This document shows, in pieces, positions 14,362-29,485 of a stretch of 64,000 bases of DNA. The stretch is taken from contig CBDCEW010000100.1 in assembly GCA_965215885.1 (NCBI GenBank), forward strand, positions 32,001-96,000. The letters run 5' to 3'. This DNA comes from Candidatus Moanibacter sp. Lineage in GTDB: Bacteria > Verrucomicrobiota > Verrucomicrobiia > Opitutales > UBA2987. Made by a program: the position numbers and the translations under genes. Numbering within the stretch: the first letter of the stretch is position 1; each line of letters starts with the position of its first letter. The notes under the pieces are model-generated. The model did not search any database. It was given only the letters and a program-made list of their open reading frames with translations, and was not told where the DNA came from.

Positions 14362-15108
14362 TCACAGACCTTTGAAAAGATCACCGAAGGGTTCGCTCTT
14401 AAATTCGCCCGTCTTCAGGTCGATCTCGGCGATGAGCTCGGGGCCATTATTCTTCGGACTGTTTACGAGAGTCGAAATGGGAACCCGCGACATTGGTCCA
14501 GCGGGAAAGGGCCTGAAGAGGGGGCGTATGCTTTCGCTGCGGCTCTCATTCGGAACCAGCCAAAGATCGAAATCTCTCTCTTCGAGGAGCACGGGCATGC
14601 GGTCATGGATGGGTGCCATGATGTCGTTGGCCGAGGTGGTGAGGATGCTACACGACTCCAGGACAGTTCCCTCGGGGCTCTTCCATCTCTCCCACAGTCC
14701 GGCCATCGCAAACGGTTCGCCATTCCTAGCAGCAAAATAGTAGGGTTGTTTTCGGGTCGAATTTTCGGGTCGTTGCCATTCGTAGAAGCCGCTTGCCGGA
14801 ATGATACACCGCCGGCTCTTCATGGCGGCACGAAAAGACGGTTTTTCTGCCGCCGTTTCGCTGCGCGCGTTGATCATCTTGTAGCCGATCTTCGCGTCCT
14901 TTGCCCAAAACGGAACCAGCCCCCAACTAAAGAGGGATGCTTCGCGCCCACCGTCAGGTTTTGAGGAACGGATTGCGACGATCGACTGACTCGGCGTAAT
15001 GTTATAGCGAGGCTGCAGATTCTCCACAACTTCCCGGGAGAGATATTTGAGGAGAAACTTTCGCGCCAGTTCCTCCTCTTCGGCCATCAGCGTGTATCGC
15101 CCACACAT
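14362..15108 (-). CDS. SOS response-associated peptidase (SRAP/YedK/HMCES family)
   Basis: MCGRY N-terminus, RYNITPSQ, WGLVPFW, INARSET, IHDRMPV. Confidence 0.93.
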   Translation of the reverse strand: MCGRYTLMAEEEELARKFLLKYLSREVVENLQPRYNITPSQSIVAIRSSKPDGGREASLFSWGLVPFWAKDAKIGYKMINARSETAAEKPSFRAAMKSRRCIIPASGFYEWQRPENSTRKQPYYFAARNGEPFAMAGLWERWKSPEGTVLESCSILTTSANDIMAPIHDRMPVLLEERDFDLWLVPNESRSESIRPLFRPFPAGPMSRVPISTLVNSPKNNGPELIAEIDLKTGEFKSEPFGDLFKGL

Positions 15109-15214
15109 CTTATCCCTCCGACAAATTGCTTACCGTTGGTCCTCTTGAAAGGTCTCTCTCCACCTTTGACTTTGAAGCGGAACTCTCCAAACCTGCCCTC
15201 GTTCATCCGATAAA

Positions 15215-16471
15215 GTGATGACCTTGAACGACCTTCATAGCAATGAAATAGCTCGCCGCAAGGAATTCCCTATCGCGGAAAGGGAGATTTTCCTGGCCAA
15301 TGCCGCCATCTGCCCCCTGCCCAATCGAGTCGGTCAAGCCATGCGATCTCTCGTCGATGAGGCCGTTAACAACAAACTGAATCTCGACGAATTTGAAGCT
15401 CCGTATGAAGAAGCGCGCCGTCTCGCCTCTCGAATTCTGGGCTGCCGCCCTGAGAATCTAGCGCTCCTCGGCCCTACCTCCATCGGTCTCTCCCTTGTTG
15501 CCAACGGTCTCAAGTTCGAGCTGGGAGACAACATCGTTTACTACCACGATGATTACCCTTCCAATGCCGTCGTATGGATGAACCTGGAAAAGAGAGGGGT
15601 CAACTTGCGGCGCGTCAGGGTTGAGGAGCCAGGATTCATAACTGTCGACGATCTCAAACCGCTTGTCGATGAACGCACCCGCCTGGTGGCGCTCGCATCG
15701 GCACATTTCATAGGCGGTTACCGAATAGATCTCGACGCCATAGGGGAGTGGGCGAGGAGCCGAGGCGTGTTATTCTGTGTAGACGGAATCCAAACCGTGG
15801 GAGCATTGGAGACGAGCCTGGATTACGTCGATTTTCTCTCCGCGGATGCCCATAAATGGCTGCTGGGACCTACCGCAATCGGACTCTTTTATGTCAACCC
15901 CGAAGTGATGGATCTGCTTGAGCCTACCCTTCTCGGATGGAATAACGTAATCTGCCCCGAGTTTATTACGCCCGAGAAGATTGTTTTTAAACCGGACGCT
16001 GGTCGGTATGAAGCGGGTTGTCCAAATCTTGTCGGACTGCTTGGATTCCTCGCCGCTCTTGAGATGTTGAACGAGTTTGGGATTGAAGAGATTGAAAAGA
16101 CGGTGGTCGAGCATACGCGCCGCATTCGGGAGGGCGTTCGCGTGAGAGGATATACTTTGGCTTGTAGCGATGATGACCGGCTCTCCGGGATATCGACGTT
16201 TCGACGAGCGATATCGACATCGAGGCGCTCTATCAGAATCTGACGCAGGCTGGCGTTGTCTCTTCCCTCCGGACTACACCCGATGAGCAAAAGTGGCGAT
16301 ATCGACATCGAGGCGCTCTATCAGAATCTGACGCAGGCTGGCGTTGTCTCTTCCCTCCGGACTACACCCGATGAGCAAAAGTGGATACGTTATTCTCCAC
16401 ACTGTTACAAGGTTTCTTCAGTAAAACGGCAAAGCACGGACGAAATCGACGCCGCCCTCGAGATGTTATGA
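15215..16471 (+). pseudogene. Class V aminotransferase/cysteine desulfurase-like gene, 3' end disrupted by a frameshift and an 88-bp tandem duplication (possibly an assembly artefact)
   Basis: VDGIQ and DAHKWLLGP PLP motifs; duplication 16208-16295/16296-16383; C-terminal WIRYSPHCY...TDEIDAALEML lies in another frame. Confidence 0.75.
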
Positions 16472-17278
16472 AAATCGAATCTATCGTGTTCTATATCGTT
16501 ATCCCGGTCATAATCCTGGTCGTCCTGATTCTGAAAAGTGGGGGCAAGGGCAAGCGGAGATTGTTGATGGAGCAGGTTCTTTGGCCGGGAATCTCGGCAT
16601 CGGCCTGCTGGGAGGCGAGCCTGTTTTTCCGCGAATCGCTTTTCTGGAGAACGTGCTTTCTCCGCAAATCGTTTCAGGCGGAAGGGGAGTTTCGTAATCG
16701 TATTCTGGAGGATTTTCGCAAGGGATGGGTTGGGCGTTGGCTGGAGGAAATGGACAAGCTGGAGTTTCAGATTTGTCTGGCCGCGGGCAAACCATTTCTC
16801 CACCGGTTCCGGAGATAGTCGCACCAGCTTTACGCTACGGTGCGATTGATCGGTCCGAACCCTAAAGCGCTGACTTTCCAGTTTTCCCGTGAAGGTTTCT
16901 CGTACCGCAGTAAAATCGGCAAAGCAGTCATTGCTGAACTGGTCAGCACCGATGGGATGCAGGATGTGCAGGTGGGAGATACCCGCTTTGATAAGCTCTT
17001 TGTCGTCAAATCGAAGGCGATCCCGACTTTATAAGTGCGGCTCTTCTACCGGAAATAAAGGACAGATTCTATCAAGTAAAACCCGAAACCTGCCAGCCAT
17101 AGGCTGGTCCGCCCGTGGCGGAGAGGAACACGAAGCTAAAGGGACCCTTAAGCTCGAAGGGGAGGAGATGTGCTACGATGAAGTGGGCACCATTTCTACC
17201 GATGCCGTCCGCCTTCGCTGCGAAGCAGTGGCCAACCTCCTCGCCGATCTCGCTGAGGCTGTCGATGTCTATGGGTAG
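16468..17278 (+). pseudogene. Membrane-anchored hypothetical gene interrupted by three fragments of the 27565-29485 IS
   Basis: N-terminal TM (MKIESIVFYIVIPVIILVVLIL); IS-identical blocks at 16705-16793, 16927-16954 and 17077-17124. Confidence 0.6.
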
Positions 17279-23502: not shown

Positions 23503-24288
23503 TTACTTTCCGACTCGTAATTGAGATTCGAAAAGACGAATCTCGTAGTTGAGGATGGTGAGGGCAACTGTTGAGGCGGTTTCCGCTCTCAGCACGTGTT
23601 CTCCCAGTCTCACGGGTTGAAATCCGCGGTTGCGAGCCAATCCGTATTCCCTCTCCGTAAAGTCGCCCTCTGGGCCGATCAGCCAGAAGACTTCAGTGGG
23701 CGGAATTCCGCCCTGCGACCCCAGGAATTCTCTCAAAATGACAGAGAATTCGAGCGCTCCAGGGGAGAGACTCGCAATCAGCCTTAGTGAGCTGTCCGGA
23801 ACCGAGGCACAGACTTCCTCGAAATCGGATACCGAATCAATGGTAGGCAGGTGGGTGCGCCCGCACTGTTTGCAGACCCCTATGGCTAGAGATCGCCACT
23901 TCCTCAACCTCAGGTCTTGCCGACGAGCTGGGAGTTGCACTTCGCACCGCTCGGTGGAAATTGGAATGATTCCTGAGGCGCCCAACTCCGTGGCCATCCG
24001 GATGACCGTATCCATTGCCCTGCTTTTGAGCAAGGCCGGTGCCAGGGTGGCTTTCATTCGGGGTCCCTTTGCTCGATAGTGTTTGAGGATCGTCAAAGTG
24101 GCTTTGGGTTTGGTTGGGTCGCGGATTATGCATTCGAATTCGTTGCCATCGCCATCAAATACGCAGACTGGGTCATCTCGTTTGGCACGACGAACATTGA
24201 GCAGATGGTGTGATTCTGCGCTACTCAATGTGATCGAAGTGCGGGGTAGTTCGGGTGCCGGTTCGATAAAGCAACGCAGACGAGGCAT
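23503..24288 (-). CDS. rsmE: 16S rRNA m3U1498 methyltransferase RsmE (copy 1)
   Basis: HHLLNVRR, ATELG, IGPEGDF, LGEHVLRAETA; likely start MPRLRCF. Confidence 0.9.
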   Translation of the reverse strand: MPRLRCFIEPAPELPRTSITLSSAESHHLLNVRRAKRDDPVCVFDGDGNEFECIIRDPTKPKATLTILKHYRAKGPRMKATLAPALLKSRAMDTVIRMATELGASGIIPISTERCEVQLPARRQDLRLRKWRSLAIGVCKQCGRTHLPTIDSVSDFEEVCASVPDSSLRLIASLSPGALEFSVILREFLGSQGGIPPTEVFWLIGPEGDFTEREYGLARNRGFQPVRLGEHVLRAETASTVALTILNYEIRLFESQLRVGK

Positions 24289-24343
24289 CGGAATCCTGAT
24301 TATGGTGCTCTCGCTGTGAGGCGTCGAGAAGCGAAGAAAATAG

Positions 24344-24470
24344 AAAAAAAGACGCCGCAGAATCCCTTCTGCGGCGCCACCCACTGCTTAACAAACTACA
24401 AACCAGACTGAAACCGTCTATTAAGCTCTAAACCATAAACCACATGAAAACAAACTAAACCTTAGTTTCA
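24344..24470 (-). ncRNA. Candidate sRNA, paralog 1
   Basis: Preceded by TTGAAC-N17-GTCTAT; starts TGAAACTAA; contains TTTTCATG and a 23-nt core shared with paralog 2; ends in a 10-bp GC hairpin plus T7. Confidence 0.65.
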
Positions 24471-24475
24471 TAAAT

Positions 24476-24504
24476 ATAGACTGTAATTATCCAAATGCGT
24501 TCAA
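24476..24504 (-). promoter_or_regulatory. ECF/sigmaE-like promoter for sRNA paralog 1
   Basis: Minus strand TTGAAC gcatttggataattaca GTCTAT. Confidence 0.6.
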
Positions 24505-24545
24505 TATTGACCCCATTGTTTCAAGAGATCGAGATGTGATGAGGG

Positions 24546-24664
24546 CAAAACAAAACGCCACCGGCATTGCCGGTGGCGTTTGCAAGAGTTCAACCAAACT
24601 ACAAACCAGACTGAAACTATGAAAATGAAACTCTCCCACCCATGAAAATGCAGGATTAGTTTCA
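24546..24664 (-). ncRNA. Candidate sRNA, paralog 2
   Basis: Preceded by TTGAAC-N17-GTCAAA; starts TGAAACTAA; same 23-nt core; ends in a 13-bp hairpin (aaacgccaccggc/gccggtggcgttt) plus a T-rich tail. Confidence 0.65.
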
Positions 24665-24669
24665 AAGAG

Positions 24670-24698
24670 TTTGACGGCGGTTGCAGCAAAACGTTCAA
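24670..24698 (-). promoter_or_regulatory. ECF/sigmaE-like promoter for sRNA paralog 2
   Basis: Minus strand TTGAAC gttttgctgcaaccgcc GTCAAA. Confidence 0.62.
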
Positions 24699-24736: not shown

Positions 24737-25309
24737 ATGCGAATTACCGGAGGCAGGGCCAAGGGAATTGTTTTACGAATCCCCAAAGGTAAGGGAATCA
24801 GGCCGGCTACTGACAGGTTGCGTGAAGCGACTTTTTCGTGCCTCGGTGAATCTGTGGCAGGAAAGAGAGTTGTCGATCTGTTTGCGGGCAGCGGTGCCTA
24901 CGGGTTAGAGGCCATCAGTCGCGGTGCGTCGAGAGCCTCCTTCGTGGAAAGAGACGGGCGGTGCTTAAACGCTATCAGGATGAATCTGGAGGCGGCGAAA
25001 AGGAGTATGAATGAGCCCGATATCCAATGTCAGGTGTTTGCATCTGATGTTTTCAAGTGGTGTCGAGCCGAATCGGAAAAATACGATCTTGTCTTTCTCG
25101 ATCCACCTTACGATCTGATCAAGCGTACTCATATCGAACTGATTAGGCTAGTGGCGAAAAGAGCCTCCCTTCATTCCGAGGCGCGTATCGTTATTGAGAT
25201 GCCGGGAGATTTGGATCTTCATACTCCCGGATGGGCGCTTGAACGCCGATTGGGAAAAGGTAAGGGGCCGGATGATCCAACCGTAGCTGTATATTCCTTG
25301 GTGGATTAA
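24737..25309 (+). CDS. rsmD: 16S rRNA m2G966 methyltransferase RsmD
   Basis: MRITGG, IRPATDRLRE, DLFAGSGAYGLEAISRGA, FLDPPY. Confidence 0.93.
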   Translation: MRITGGRAKGIVLRIPKGKGIRPATDRLREATFSCLGESVAGKRVVDLFAGSGAYGLEAISRGASRASFVERDGRCLNAIRMNLEAAKRSMNEPDIQCQVFASDVFKWCRAESEKYDLVFLDPPYDLIKRTHIELIRLVAKRASLHSEARIVIEMPGDLDLHTPGWALERRLGKGKGPDDPTVAVYSLVD

Positions 25310-26025
25310 ATGAGTCTCATCATAGAACTGACGAGACCTACCGCGACGGTTGCGGCGGTTTCCGTGCGGAGAACACGATCACCAATTCGAGCGAGGGTGA
25401 ATTCGCCTTGCCGCAAGGCGTCGCGCTCGGCGCCGGACCATCCTCGTTCCGGACCGATCGCAACCACCGACTGGTCAAATTGAAACCGGGCAGCGGTTAA
25501 TTGCACGGTAGCCTCGTAAAGGTCGAGGGCGAGTTTATTGGAGATAGCATTAAGCTGTGCGATTCGAGAATAGAGGGAGTTATGGTGCGTGACGACTGGG
25601 AGGCGTGTATGGAATGCCTGCTCCGCCCCTTGAATGAGGAGATGTTTCCACTCTCCCGTTGACCAGAGAGAACTCTGTCGGTATGACGGTTCACCCTTGT
25701 CGGCCTGGAAAAACGAGATTCTCGAAACGCCCAGGCTGGTGCATTCCCTTAGGATCCGCCGAGCCGCCTGCGGCCTGGGAAGACCTACGAGCAGTTCGAT
25801 GGGGAGGCTCTGAGGAATATCGGTTTCCCAAGTGAACCGGAGGTGCATTCCCATGTCCGAATCGTCAGAGAGAATCGACGCCTTCCCTCGCGGTCCGTTG
25901 ACGACGCCGACGTCGAATCGATCACCGACATCAATCCGGAGCACGACCCGGAGATGCCGGACCCGAGGATCGGTTGAAGGAAGGATAACTTCGTCGGACC
26001 GTTCTTCGAATAGAATCAGGTTCAT
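25306..26025 (-). CDS. rsmE: RsmE-family methyltransferase (copy 2)
   Basis: MNLILF start, GLPRPQ, IGPERGWS, IGDRVLRTETA. Confidence 0.85.
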   Translation of the reverse strand: MNLILFEERSDEVILPSTDPRVRHLRVVLRIDVGDRFDVGVVNGPRGKASILSDDSDMGMHLRFTWETDIPQSLPIELLVGLPRPQAARRILRECTSLGVSRISFFQADKGEPSYRQSSLWSTGEWKHLLIQGAEQAFHTRLPVVTHHNSLYSRIAQLNAISNKLALDLYEATVQLTAARFQFDQSVVAIGPERGWSGAERDALRQGEFTLARIGDRVLRTETAATVAVGLVSSMMRLI

Positions 26026-27567: not shown

Positions 27568-29485
27568 ACCCCATTCGAAAAGCCTTTCGAGCGGGCGGTT
27601 TAAGGTTCTCCGCCACGGGCGGACCAGCCTATGGCTGGCAGGTTTCGGGTTTTAGGCTGCCGGCGCTGCCGATGAGCAGGTATTGAGCGGCCATCGGCGT
27701 GGCTTGCTGCACAATACGTATATTTGCCGCTGTCTGGAGGCATACTCATCCCGTGGTGCTTTTTTCTCTGAGCTTCAAAGCGGTCAGATTCAGGCTGCCT
27801 GTTCCAGTTCCTCCCCTCGGCGTTTCTTCATCAGTATGATGCGGCAGAAGTTGTAGGCCAGAACCTTCTCGAGCAGTTCATCGCCTACCGCATCGATGCC
27901 GCGGCGGCCGAGTTCGCCAAAGGCAAATCCATCTTTAATCGTGAACATCAGCGACTCCACTGCGGAGCGATCGCGGCGTGCCTCGCGATACGCCTCGCTC
28001 TCCCAGTCCTCGGGGGTGGTCAACTTCTTGCCCTTCGCCCCACTGATACTGATCTGCTTTACCCCCATGCTCAGCACCTCCTTGCGTCCCTTCGCCGAAG
28101 CATATCCGTCATCGGTGCTGACCAGTTCAGCAATGACACCGGTGCGCTTGATCGAATCGCCGATGGCCGGCGCCAGCTCAATGGAGTCTGCCGCGTTGCC
28201 TTGCGGTACGATCAGGCTGGTGACAAAACCGTTTTCGCTGCGAACCAGTTGTGGCTTGTACCCGATCACTGGATTGCGGCTGCCCTTCTTGATGTAGGCC
28301 GCCGATCCGTCCGAGAGGCTCAGGACCTTCTGTGTGGACGGTAGCTTCTTTTCGTGAAACACCCGATCATGAGCATACTCAACAACCCGCTTGGCGTCGG
28401 CAATATCGCCCCTGATCTGGCTCAATGCCCGCTCCAGAAGCTCCCGGCGAGTGGGAGGCAGTGAATCCATCGACAGGCCCTCTTCAAGATGGCTCAGTTC
28501 CCCCGTTAGTGAGTCGGCCGCCTTGCGGCCCCGCTTGAGCAACCGCCGGTAGTGTTTCTTCAGCTTGCCCTTCGACTTCGGTTTGCCCGCGGCCAGACAA
28601 ATCTGAAACTCCAGCTTGTCCATTTCCTCCAGCCAACGCCCAACCCATCCCTTGCGAAAATCCTCCAGCCCGAAGACATGCAACTTCTGACCCAAACGAT
28701 TGGCCCGCATCAAAAGACCGCTCAGAATCTTCCCATCGGTGGGCCAGCAGCTGTTTGCTTTCACCGAGGTGCTGTCGATCGTCAGCTTCCCGAAATCGTC
28801 CCATTGCTCCTGGAGGATAAACCCAATCTGTTTATCAAAGATCAACTCGCGGGTCGTATGGCTGACCAGGTTCACGTTCTCCAGAATCGTCGTCACCGCC
28901 GGCATTCTCAGTCCCCCGCTCTGCAAAAATCCGTACAAGCTCATCGACTCGCGCACAAACCGCCGTGCCGGTTTCGTGGTCAACGAACCCAGAAACCCTC
29001 GAATCATCACGAACACGTATACCGCATAAGCCGGCATCCGCGGCCGGCCTGCCCCAAGATTCAATTCAGCAGCCAGAATATTCTCCTCCTCGATGTCCAG
29101 CTCCGGCAGCTCCGCTGTGCGCCCTTCAAAGAACCTGCGATCTTCCAATCGAAGTTTCTTCTTCTCACGCGCATGGGCGTCCAGATCCTTCTCGATCGCC
29201 TCGATGATTTGCGGCGCGAACCCGGCCAATTCTTCAACTTCATCCAGAAAATCACGGAAATCCGTGTCTGGAACCGGCAGAATGAGGTTGCTAAGGGGCG
29301 TCTTATCGCTTTTGTTCTCCTCTGTCGCACATGTTGGCATGTTTAACTCCTTTCTTAATCTTAGGTTGTTAAACACTAGCATGTTGCGACACTTTTTATC
29401 AAGCCAAAAAATGATTTTTCTCAAGTTCTTCTTGCGCCTTTTGCGCCTCTTTGCGGCCAATCAGTAGCTTTTCGGATAAGGTCTA
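27565..29485 (-). mobile_element. Insertion sequence with DDE transposase (IS5/ISNCY-like)
   Basis: 19-bp imperfect TIRs tagaccccattcgaaaagc / gcttttcggataaggtcta (16/19); single long transposase ORF. Confidence 0.88.
27790..29340 (-). CDS. DDE transposase
   Basis: IDSTSVKAN..WPTD, STDDGYAS and RSAVESL..TIK DDE motifs; likely start MPTCATEE after SD AAGGAG. Confidence 0.88.
   Translation of the reverse strand: MPTCATEENKSDKTPLSNLILPVPDTDFRDFLDEVEELAGFAPQIIEAIEKDLDAHAREKKKLRLEDRRFFEGRTAELPELDIEEENILAAELNLGAGRPRMPAYAVYVFVMIRGFLGSLTTKPARRFVRESMSLYGFLQSGGLRMPAVTTILENVNLVSHTTRELIFDKQIGFILQEQWDDFGKLTIDSTSVKANSCWPTDGKILSGLLMRANRLGQKLHVFGLEDFRKGWVGRWLEEMDKLEFQICLAAGKPKSKGKLKKHYRRLLKRGRKAADSLTGELSHLEEGLSMDSLPPTRRELLERALSQIRGDIADAKRVVEYAHDRVFHEKKLPSTQKVLSLSDGSAAYIKKGSRNPVIGYKPQLVRSENGFVTSLIVPQGNAADSIELAPAIGDSIKRTGVIAELVSTDDGYASAKGRKEVLSMGVKQISISGAKGKKLTTPEDWESEAYREARRDRSAVESLMFTIKDGFAFGELGRRGIDAVGDELLEKVLAYNFCRIILMKKRRGEELEQAA

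Follow-up and report, generated by a model that had tools for sequence, protein, structure and literature searches.

The two units that lie on the minus strand between rsmE and rsmD in the window (the whole stretch of 64,000 nt analyzed here) are members of a real, order-wide and apparently undescribed family of small RNAs (sRNAs) of the Opitutales. They are best explained, with a probability of about 0.62, as paralogous trans-acting sRNAs that would be transcribed from ECF-type promoters and would block the translation of outer-membrane mRNAs, thereby acting as the repressing arm of an envelope response. This explanation draws on the conservation of the units, on the linkage of promoter, RNA and terminator, and on complementarity to porin leaders in related genomes.

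Both units share one layout, in which an ECF-type promoter is followed by the identical 23-mer and by a terminator, as had been proposed in the initial annotation, and each of the listed elements was found in its place. The features, in window coordinates, are:

Between rsmE and rsmD: intergenic stretch of 448 nt, with both sRNA units inside
24737..25309, plus strand: rsmD, divergent neighbor (context; TIGR00095, 116.9 against a cut-off of 117.5)
24670..24698, minus strand: ECF-type promoter of type A, the upstream unit (-35 TTGAAC 24698-24693, -10 GTCAAA 24675-24670, 17-nt spacer)
24664 (type A) and 24470 (type B), minus strand: TGAAACTAA, 5 nt past each -10 box
24648-24641 (type A) and 24450-24443 (type B), minus strand: TTTTCATG box
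24546..24664, minus strand: predicted sRNA type A of about 119 nt, its start placed by promoter spacing (match to model R1 of 77 bits, copy in the training set; folding; overlapped in part by RNA contigs)
24629..24645, minus strand: species-specific type A segment that lies in part within the 5′ hairpin loop, complementary to mlaF -13..+3
24595..24625, minus strand: conserved anti-leader block of type A, made up of TTCAT(A) and the 23-nt core (alignment A1, unpaired in the consensus fold, minimal homologs)
24617-24595, minus strand: 23-mer core of type A, order-wide seed 24607-24595
24546..24583, minus strand: terminator hairpin of type A with broken U-tract (fold; stem covaries across homologs)
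24476..24504, minus strand: ECF-type promoter of type B, the downstream unit (-35 TTGAAC 24504-24499, -10 GTCTAT 24481-24476, 17-nt spacer)
24342..24470, minus strand: predicted sRNA type B, about 129 nt (match to model R1 of 81 bits, copy in the training set; RNA-contig cover)
24431..24450, minus strand: species-specific segment of type B including TTTTCATG, with complementarity to two TonB-dependent receptor genes at their start regions
24392..24414, minus strand: 23-nt core of type B, order-wide seed 24404-24392
24342..24378, minus strand: intrinsic terminator of type B with 7 U (fold), 54 nt before the rsmE start
23503..24288, minus strand: rsmE, the usual downstream neighbor (context; TIGR00046 above cut-off; synteny)

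The word shared by the two units is exactly 23 nt long and thus exceeds the longest repeat (16 nt) that arose when the 448-nt intergenic stretch was shuffled 1000 times with its dinucleotides kept; no third copy with up to four mismatches was found in the 6.36-Mb assembly. The -35 box of type A is located 39 nt from the rsmD start. The two intrinsic terminators that had been annotated both fold as hairpins, at -25 kcal/mol for type A and -23 kcal/mol for type B, with the reservation that only type B ends in an unbroken U-tract. Whole-unit folding yielded z = -3.4 and -3.8, and since these values fall to -0.9 and -1.4 once the terminators are removed, the folding stability comes from the terminators. 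The 5′ end of type A is predicted to form a hairpin of its own with the anti-AUG word in the loop. That the 5′ GAAAC pairs with the first letters of the core, as suggested previously, is formally possible; it is disfavored by pairing probabilities of 0.003 and 0.034 (P < 0.04) and was rejected. Elsewhere in the window, a second rsmE-family gene (25306-26025, minus strand) lies beyond rsmD and converges on it, and a transposase-like ORF (27790-29460, minus strand, labeled by eye) is repeated on other contigs, with fragments near 16400-16830.

The core is present in seven of eight genomes of the same family, and none of the 40 listed relatives is a congener of the genome analyzed here. A covariance model for the order, built from the core-plus-terminator alignment A1 (51 source copies, duplicates left out) and not including the promoter, matched 84 of 150 Opitutales genomes at E ≤ 0.01, a count for which 30 candidates per genome were scored and in which most weak matches are uninspected. 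No match was obtained in one GC-rich family (0/6 and 0/8 genomes in overlapping sets) nor in several families with genomes of about 1 Mb. In a sample of the phylum, 14 of 19 matches fell inside the order; the other five were weak (E 0.002-0.009) and were taken as chance, the one that was inspected containing neither seed nor promoter. Named records with the element beside rsmD or rsmE belong to the Opitutales or Puniceicoccaceae. One search pattern fits only type-A copies and missed the family of the window itself, so that its 39/401 is no distribution count. Matches to exact patterns in non-Verrucomicrobia records lacked the flanking features and were set aside. The architecture sought beside rsmE and rsmD in relatives is part of an order-wide family, in which the two paralogue types recur, the window having one of each. 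Arrays of up to four copies occur (genome G259), each copy with its own promoter. Copy number varies; nine model matches, most of them weak, were seen in genome G045.

Across these copies, what has been conserved is a G/U-rich seed, single-stranded and immediately ahead of the terminator, rather than TTTTCATG or a 5′ pairing. In the consensus fold the core is unpaired and only the terminator covaries; for type B, 5 of 11 terminator stem pairs change on both sides among 12 copies. A long helix involving the type-B core was considered and rejected, as only 1 of its 15 pairs changed on both sides, most were invariant or G-U, and it is absent from the fold of all copies. The shortest predicted RNAs consist of little more than an AGTTTG(T/A)-type seed block and the terminator. 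No conserved ORF was found, and an intrinsic terminator with a covarying stem is present, as is general for sRNAs. The anatomy of a trans-acting sRNA, as the initial annotation had proposed, and the conservation at rsmE are both supported. Its account of the conserved boxes needs correction in two respects. The 23-mer was regarded as the conserved core, which holds for its 3′ half, the invariant part. Likewise, the exact anti-start-codon box TTTTCATG occurs in only 2 of 49 copies, both of them in the window, while 18 of 49 have the related TTCAT, in most cases immediately 5′ of the core, where it complements the AACTATGAA start context of porin genes. Two further loci deserve mention. Between rsmD and rsmE of genome G030 (locus L025), the place is taken by another kind of short RNA-like unit, which has an ECF-like promoter, a terminator and a TTTTCATGG word but not the family core, and the rsmD leader of genome G146 (locus L323) contains a perfect 11-mer seed complement.

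The ECF-type promoter assignment was borne out at the level of both the genome and the family. A promoter weight matrix was derived from 37 promoter pairs, the copies of the window being left out. When the genome was scanned with it, the type A promoter obtained the best score (26.0 bits) and the type B promoter the second best (19.6 bits). A promoter of at least 10 bits, mostly 18-28, was present at 35 of 38 model matches that had not been used for training, vs 0 of 38 antisense controls; the three misses were one strong copy with a different -35 box and two of the weakest matches. In the 35 copies, the RNA length from promoter to terminator amounts to 59-119 nt.

The same motif is found at a sigma factor gene. 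Among 21 sigma-70 region-2 matches in the genome of the window, only an RpoE-like ECF gene has it upstream with at least 15 bits; this gene is followed by a likely membrane anti-sigma gene, and an OmpA-family gene is located nearby. The motif precedes 9 of 21 RpoE-like orthologs (at least 57% identity, this genome included) and 4 of 4 more, 13 of 25 in total, against a background of 0.3% of 600 random upstream windows that reach 12 bits. The RpoE-like sigma itself scored 138 bits vs an RpoE cut-off of 236 and stays below family cut-offs. At E ≤ 1e-35, this sigma was not found in 11 of 32 genomes. Six of the nine genomes from one RNA-bearing family are among these 11, and the sigma is present in a family in which the RNA was not found. 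A second ECF gene occurs in the five small genomes examined. In 6 of 7 copies, the motif lies inside its 3′ end, in front of the downstream gene, and uses codons there that the genome of the window employs rarely (TTG, 16% of Leu; TCT, 9% of Ser). With the RpoE-like sigma patchily distributed and the motif also present at the second ECF gene, the two are no more than candidates for the cognate sigma. At locus L092 near 1600 (G000:C99:85100, plus strand), the motif of the second ECF precedes a gene without NCBIfam match. In genome G110 (loci L297 and L430), a family RNA lies about 670 nt upstream of the second ECF with one short gene in between. Orthologs of the RpoE-like sigma without TTGAAC often have GGAAC 42-51 nt before their start (loci L097, L103, L107 and L109-L112), perhaps a variant promoter.

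Few protein genes follow strong promoter matches, and no classic envelope genes were recognized by eye among the 70 best. Further RNA-like units were seen at some matches. Three sRNA-like units in tandem (L123:2090-2830, minus strand; G000:C100, about 15100-15830) lie outside the window. They have a TT(T/A)GGGGTAA-type word in common, and their terminators are almost identical; of the three, only the last carries the same ECF promoter, which at 19.5 bits ranks third in the genome, and no Rfam match was obtained. They may form a second RNA array of the regulon. In genome G006 (L255:3344-3500, plus strand), a promoter of 20.3 bits precedes about 100 nt that are rich in U and G, contain no ORF and lead into a hairpin; this is another candidate for an ECF-driven sRNA.

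The initial annotation had also proposed that the G/U-rich core faces A/C-rich leaders of outer-membrane protein genes, and complementarity of this kind is supported in relatives by porin leaders. Porin loci were collected as homologs of a PF07642 porin by protein similarity, and 19 of 23 entered the analysis after removal of two that were partial and two whose genomes have no copy of the RNA. Their leaders are A/C-rich and many end in ACTATGAA. The RNAs of the same genome pair across these leaders as far as the AUG. In 10 of 13 tests, covering six of nine genomes, at most 3 of 100 shuffles did as well; in the remaining three genomes 6, 34 and 75 of 100 did. In permutation tests, a modest preference for the own genome stood at 150/5040, 24/720 and 3/120 for the best leader (the last set without the discovery genome and one congener) and, more weakly, at 204/5040, 49/720 and 15/120 for the mean, figures that are only suggestive because the tested porin genomes are kin. 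The type A RNA of the window also pairs with the porin leaders of relatives (0/100 shuffles), type B less so (19/100). Judged by these sequence comparisons, predicted pairing with porin start regions is beyond chance in six of the nine relatives.

TonB-dependent receptors gave a more variable picture. Tested against about 250-320 background genes in three genomes, receptor leaders were equaled by 0 of 40 shuffles in one, by 4 and 7 of 40 in another and by 6 and 21 of 40 in the third; core-only tests without background gave 3 to 51 of 60 (mean energy), and receptors in two genomes that had been chosen after seed matches gave 0, 11 and 12 of 100. Perfect 11-mer complements of the seed in five genomes comprised three TonB receptor starts and one PF07642 porin leader (30 loci read of 45 matches, 4 of them RNA copies and 26 non-self). 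In five genomes of another family, none of four non-self 11-mer sites was located in a leader. The frequency of the 11-mer was discarded as an argument, with 45 matches vs 50 for a reversed control that is nearly the same word. The gene rpsL, which appeared among the core targets in two genomes in different registers, was set aside.

For the genome of the window, 4286 genes were ranked by a perfect-helix model plus accessibility; genes and signal peptides were called by rough scripts, and some starts are wrong. The gene mlaF encodes a function in outer-membrane lipid handling and is embedded here in an MlaE/F/D/C context by Pfam. It ranks first for type A, with 17 bp (one G-U) over its start at -20.8 kcal/mol (0/100 shuffles), and two TonB-dependent receptors (by Pfam) rank first and second for type B (0/100 shuffles). 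Both of these pairings use the variable 5′ parts, the anti-AUG box among them. Within the top 400, genes with signal peptides are over-represented (0/100 and 4/100 shuffles), and in the type B top 100 they are not (74/100). TonB receptors as a class (22 called of 26 Plug matches) showed no gain over shuffles (23/100 and 13/100), and the core alone gave no enrichment of them in this genome (AUC 0.57 and 0.52). Plain duplex energies were discarded, as they gave no signal-peptide enrichment and suffered from G-U artifacts. A bulge-tolerant model placed mlaF fourth and the best receptor ninth, ranks that are not trusted because its top matches are over-long duplexes whose opening cost the script underestimated. 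The mlaF site was not seen in the mlaF leaders of two relatives, and no PF07642 porin was found in this genome (90% complete assembly). Target ranks in this genome depend on the model, and mlaF and the receptors are to be taken as leads only.

The family resembles several known systems in part. RybB, MicA and MicL of enterobacteria as well as MicV and VrrA of Vibrio are likewise short RNAs with an ECF-type promoter and an intrinsic terminator. Two sigma-E sRNAs share a seed, carry private segments besides and target outer-membrane mRNAs, the same being predicted here; according to PMC6694218, the seed shared by RybB and MicV is CRCUGCUUUU and forms the 5′ end of these RNAs. In contrast, the seed of the present family adjoins the terminator, its RNA strand does not contain CRCUGCUUUU, and its order is without Hfq and has tandem paralogue arrays, unlike the sigma-E sRNAs. 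A 9-letter match to the RybB/MicV seed (as given in that paper) occurs at 24381-24389 on the plus strand, so that the type-B RNA is complementary to it, probably by chance. No Rfam family was matched at gathering level, GcvB included. In E-value mode eight weak matches appeared, none near gathering, the best being RF02871 ncS54 of Burkholderia, which covered the terminator and the U-rich stretch (E 0.0026, 25.9 bits vs a gathering score of 43); coming from a different phylum and lying below the gathering score, it was taken as chance. Six homologue loci gave only a tRNA. Judged by analogy, the family would act like RybB, MicA, MicV and VrrA, yet is homologous to neither these sRNAs nor GcvB.

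GcvB has a GcvA-activated sigma-70 promoter, is Hfq-dependent, measures about 200 nt and targets amino-acid uptake. Its logic raises the question of the signal, as the RNAs might be ECF-driven base-pairing repressors that answer to nutrient state or growth phase instead of envelope damage, which we regard as unlikely while giving it real weight. The predicted targets are uptake proteins, no classic envelope genes stood out by eye among the top promoter matches, and neither candidate sigma reaches the RpoE cut-off (see the bit score above for the one scanned). Moreover, a G/U-rich single-stranded seed directed at ACA-rich leaders corresponds to the way in which GcvB addresses ACA-rich translation enhancers of transporter mRNAs, as described in PMC3879156. 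An envelope signal is, however, favored by the RpoE-like character of the sigma whose gene carries the motif, by its likely anti-sigma partner and the OmpA-family gene nearby, and by the outer-membrane role of mlaF.

A different function altogether, in which the RNAs would mainly be decoys that titrate an RNA-binding protein via repeated AGUUU-like words and in which the leader complementarity would be a by-product of composition, appears rather improbable. CsrB/RsmY-type decoys also have short repeated words and several paralogues, and the core is indeed an imperfect AGTTT repeat, single-stranded and multicopy, that on its own finds no target class in this genome. The inventory of helper proteins fits such a role as well: Hfq (PF17209) was detected in none of 101 genomes of the order, positive controls being detected, ProQ was not found in the one genome searched, which is that of the window, and three RRM proteins are present in it. 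Against titration, dinucleotide shuffles, which keep the composition, pair much worse with porin leaders, and the pairing, which takes in the species-specific 5′ parts and runs as far as the AUG, tends to favor leaders of the same genome. The GGA loop repeats of the CsrB/RsmY type are absent, and the repeats here sit in a single-stranded block complementary to mRNA leaders.

Evidence for expression comes from RNA contigs of 4 of 15 listed runs, which were chosen for holding words of this stretch and are unstranded, with no end information. Contigs of three of these runs, from two studies, overlap the units; one ends at the type B U-tract, one carries the copy of a relative, and others continue through the sequence that separates the two units. 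Neither the contig depth, which was 51 and 35 on the units and 2-8 on other pieces, nor the absence of cover on rsmD was counted as evidence. One contig skips 36 nt across the type-A terminator (window 24558-24593) at a 3-letter microhomology, likely an RT or assembly artifact or a strain difference. Another contig spans a terminator and runs into rsmE, which, together with the frequent synteny and the position of the units on the same strand 54 nt upstream of rsmE, would suit cis-acting leaders or attenuators of that gene. This is nevertheless very improbable: although 11 of 31 loci adjoin rsmE, 20 of 31 show no rsmE within the fetched flanks, the arrays repeat promoter and terminator, and no conserved alternative structure exists. 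Even less credible is a duplication relic or a set of plus-strand mini-ORFs without functional minus-strand RNA, since, despite short plus-strand ORFs that begin at ATGAAA words and the lack of a discrete RNA in the unstranded contigs, seed and promoter are kept order-wide with free spacers, the ATG word is missing in 31 of 49 copies, and promoter and U-tract indicate the minus strand.

In the favored reading of trans-acting repressors of outer-membrane mRNAs, an RpoE-like ECF sigma factor would transcribe each paralogue from its own promoter and the intrinsic terminator would end each RNA. The single-stranded G/U-rich seed beside the terminator would then pair with the A/C-rich leader of an outer-membrane mRNA, and the variable 5′ part, often with an anti-AUG word, would extend this pairing to the start codon. 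Putative targets are porins where present, TonB-dependent receptors and, in this genome, possibly mlaF. Pairing is expected to block translation initiation, and the RNAs may thus represent the repressing arm of an envelope response like that of MicA and RybB in enterobacteria, presumably of separate origin and working without Hfq. A bolder extension, which we consider doubtful although conceivable, is silencing across the order that is free of Hfq and ProQ: the RNA would mirror the generic A/C-rich leader and start codon of the most abundant exported proteins, the ECF regulon would largely consist of such arrays, the tandem units outside the window being a second one with another seed, paralogues would retune their 5′ parts to the outer-membrane genes of each genome, and an RRM-type or other protein would replace Hfq.

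The literature search yielded no description of this family, most subscription papers lying outside its scope. The main texts of PMC11109978, PMC8632094 and PMC5737381 and one supplement contain no match to the lineage names, a listing in the other two supplements being conceivable. No regulatory sRNA family for the Opitutales was found in the literature searched. A promoter consensus and a seed are now at hand, as are porin targets and two candidates for the sigma factor, which makes ECF signaling and sRNA action in an Hfq-less PVC lineage directly testable. If the proposed mechanism is true, it would mean an independent origin of the arrangement in which an ECF sigma factor pairs its activating arm with a porin-silencing RNA.
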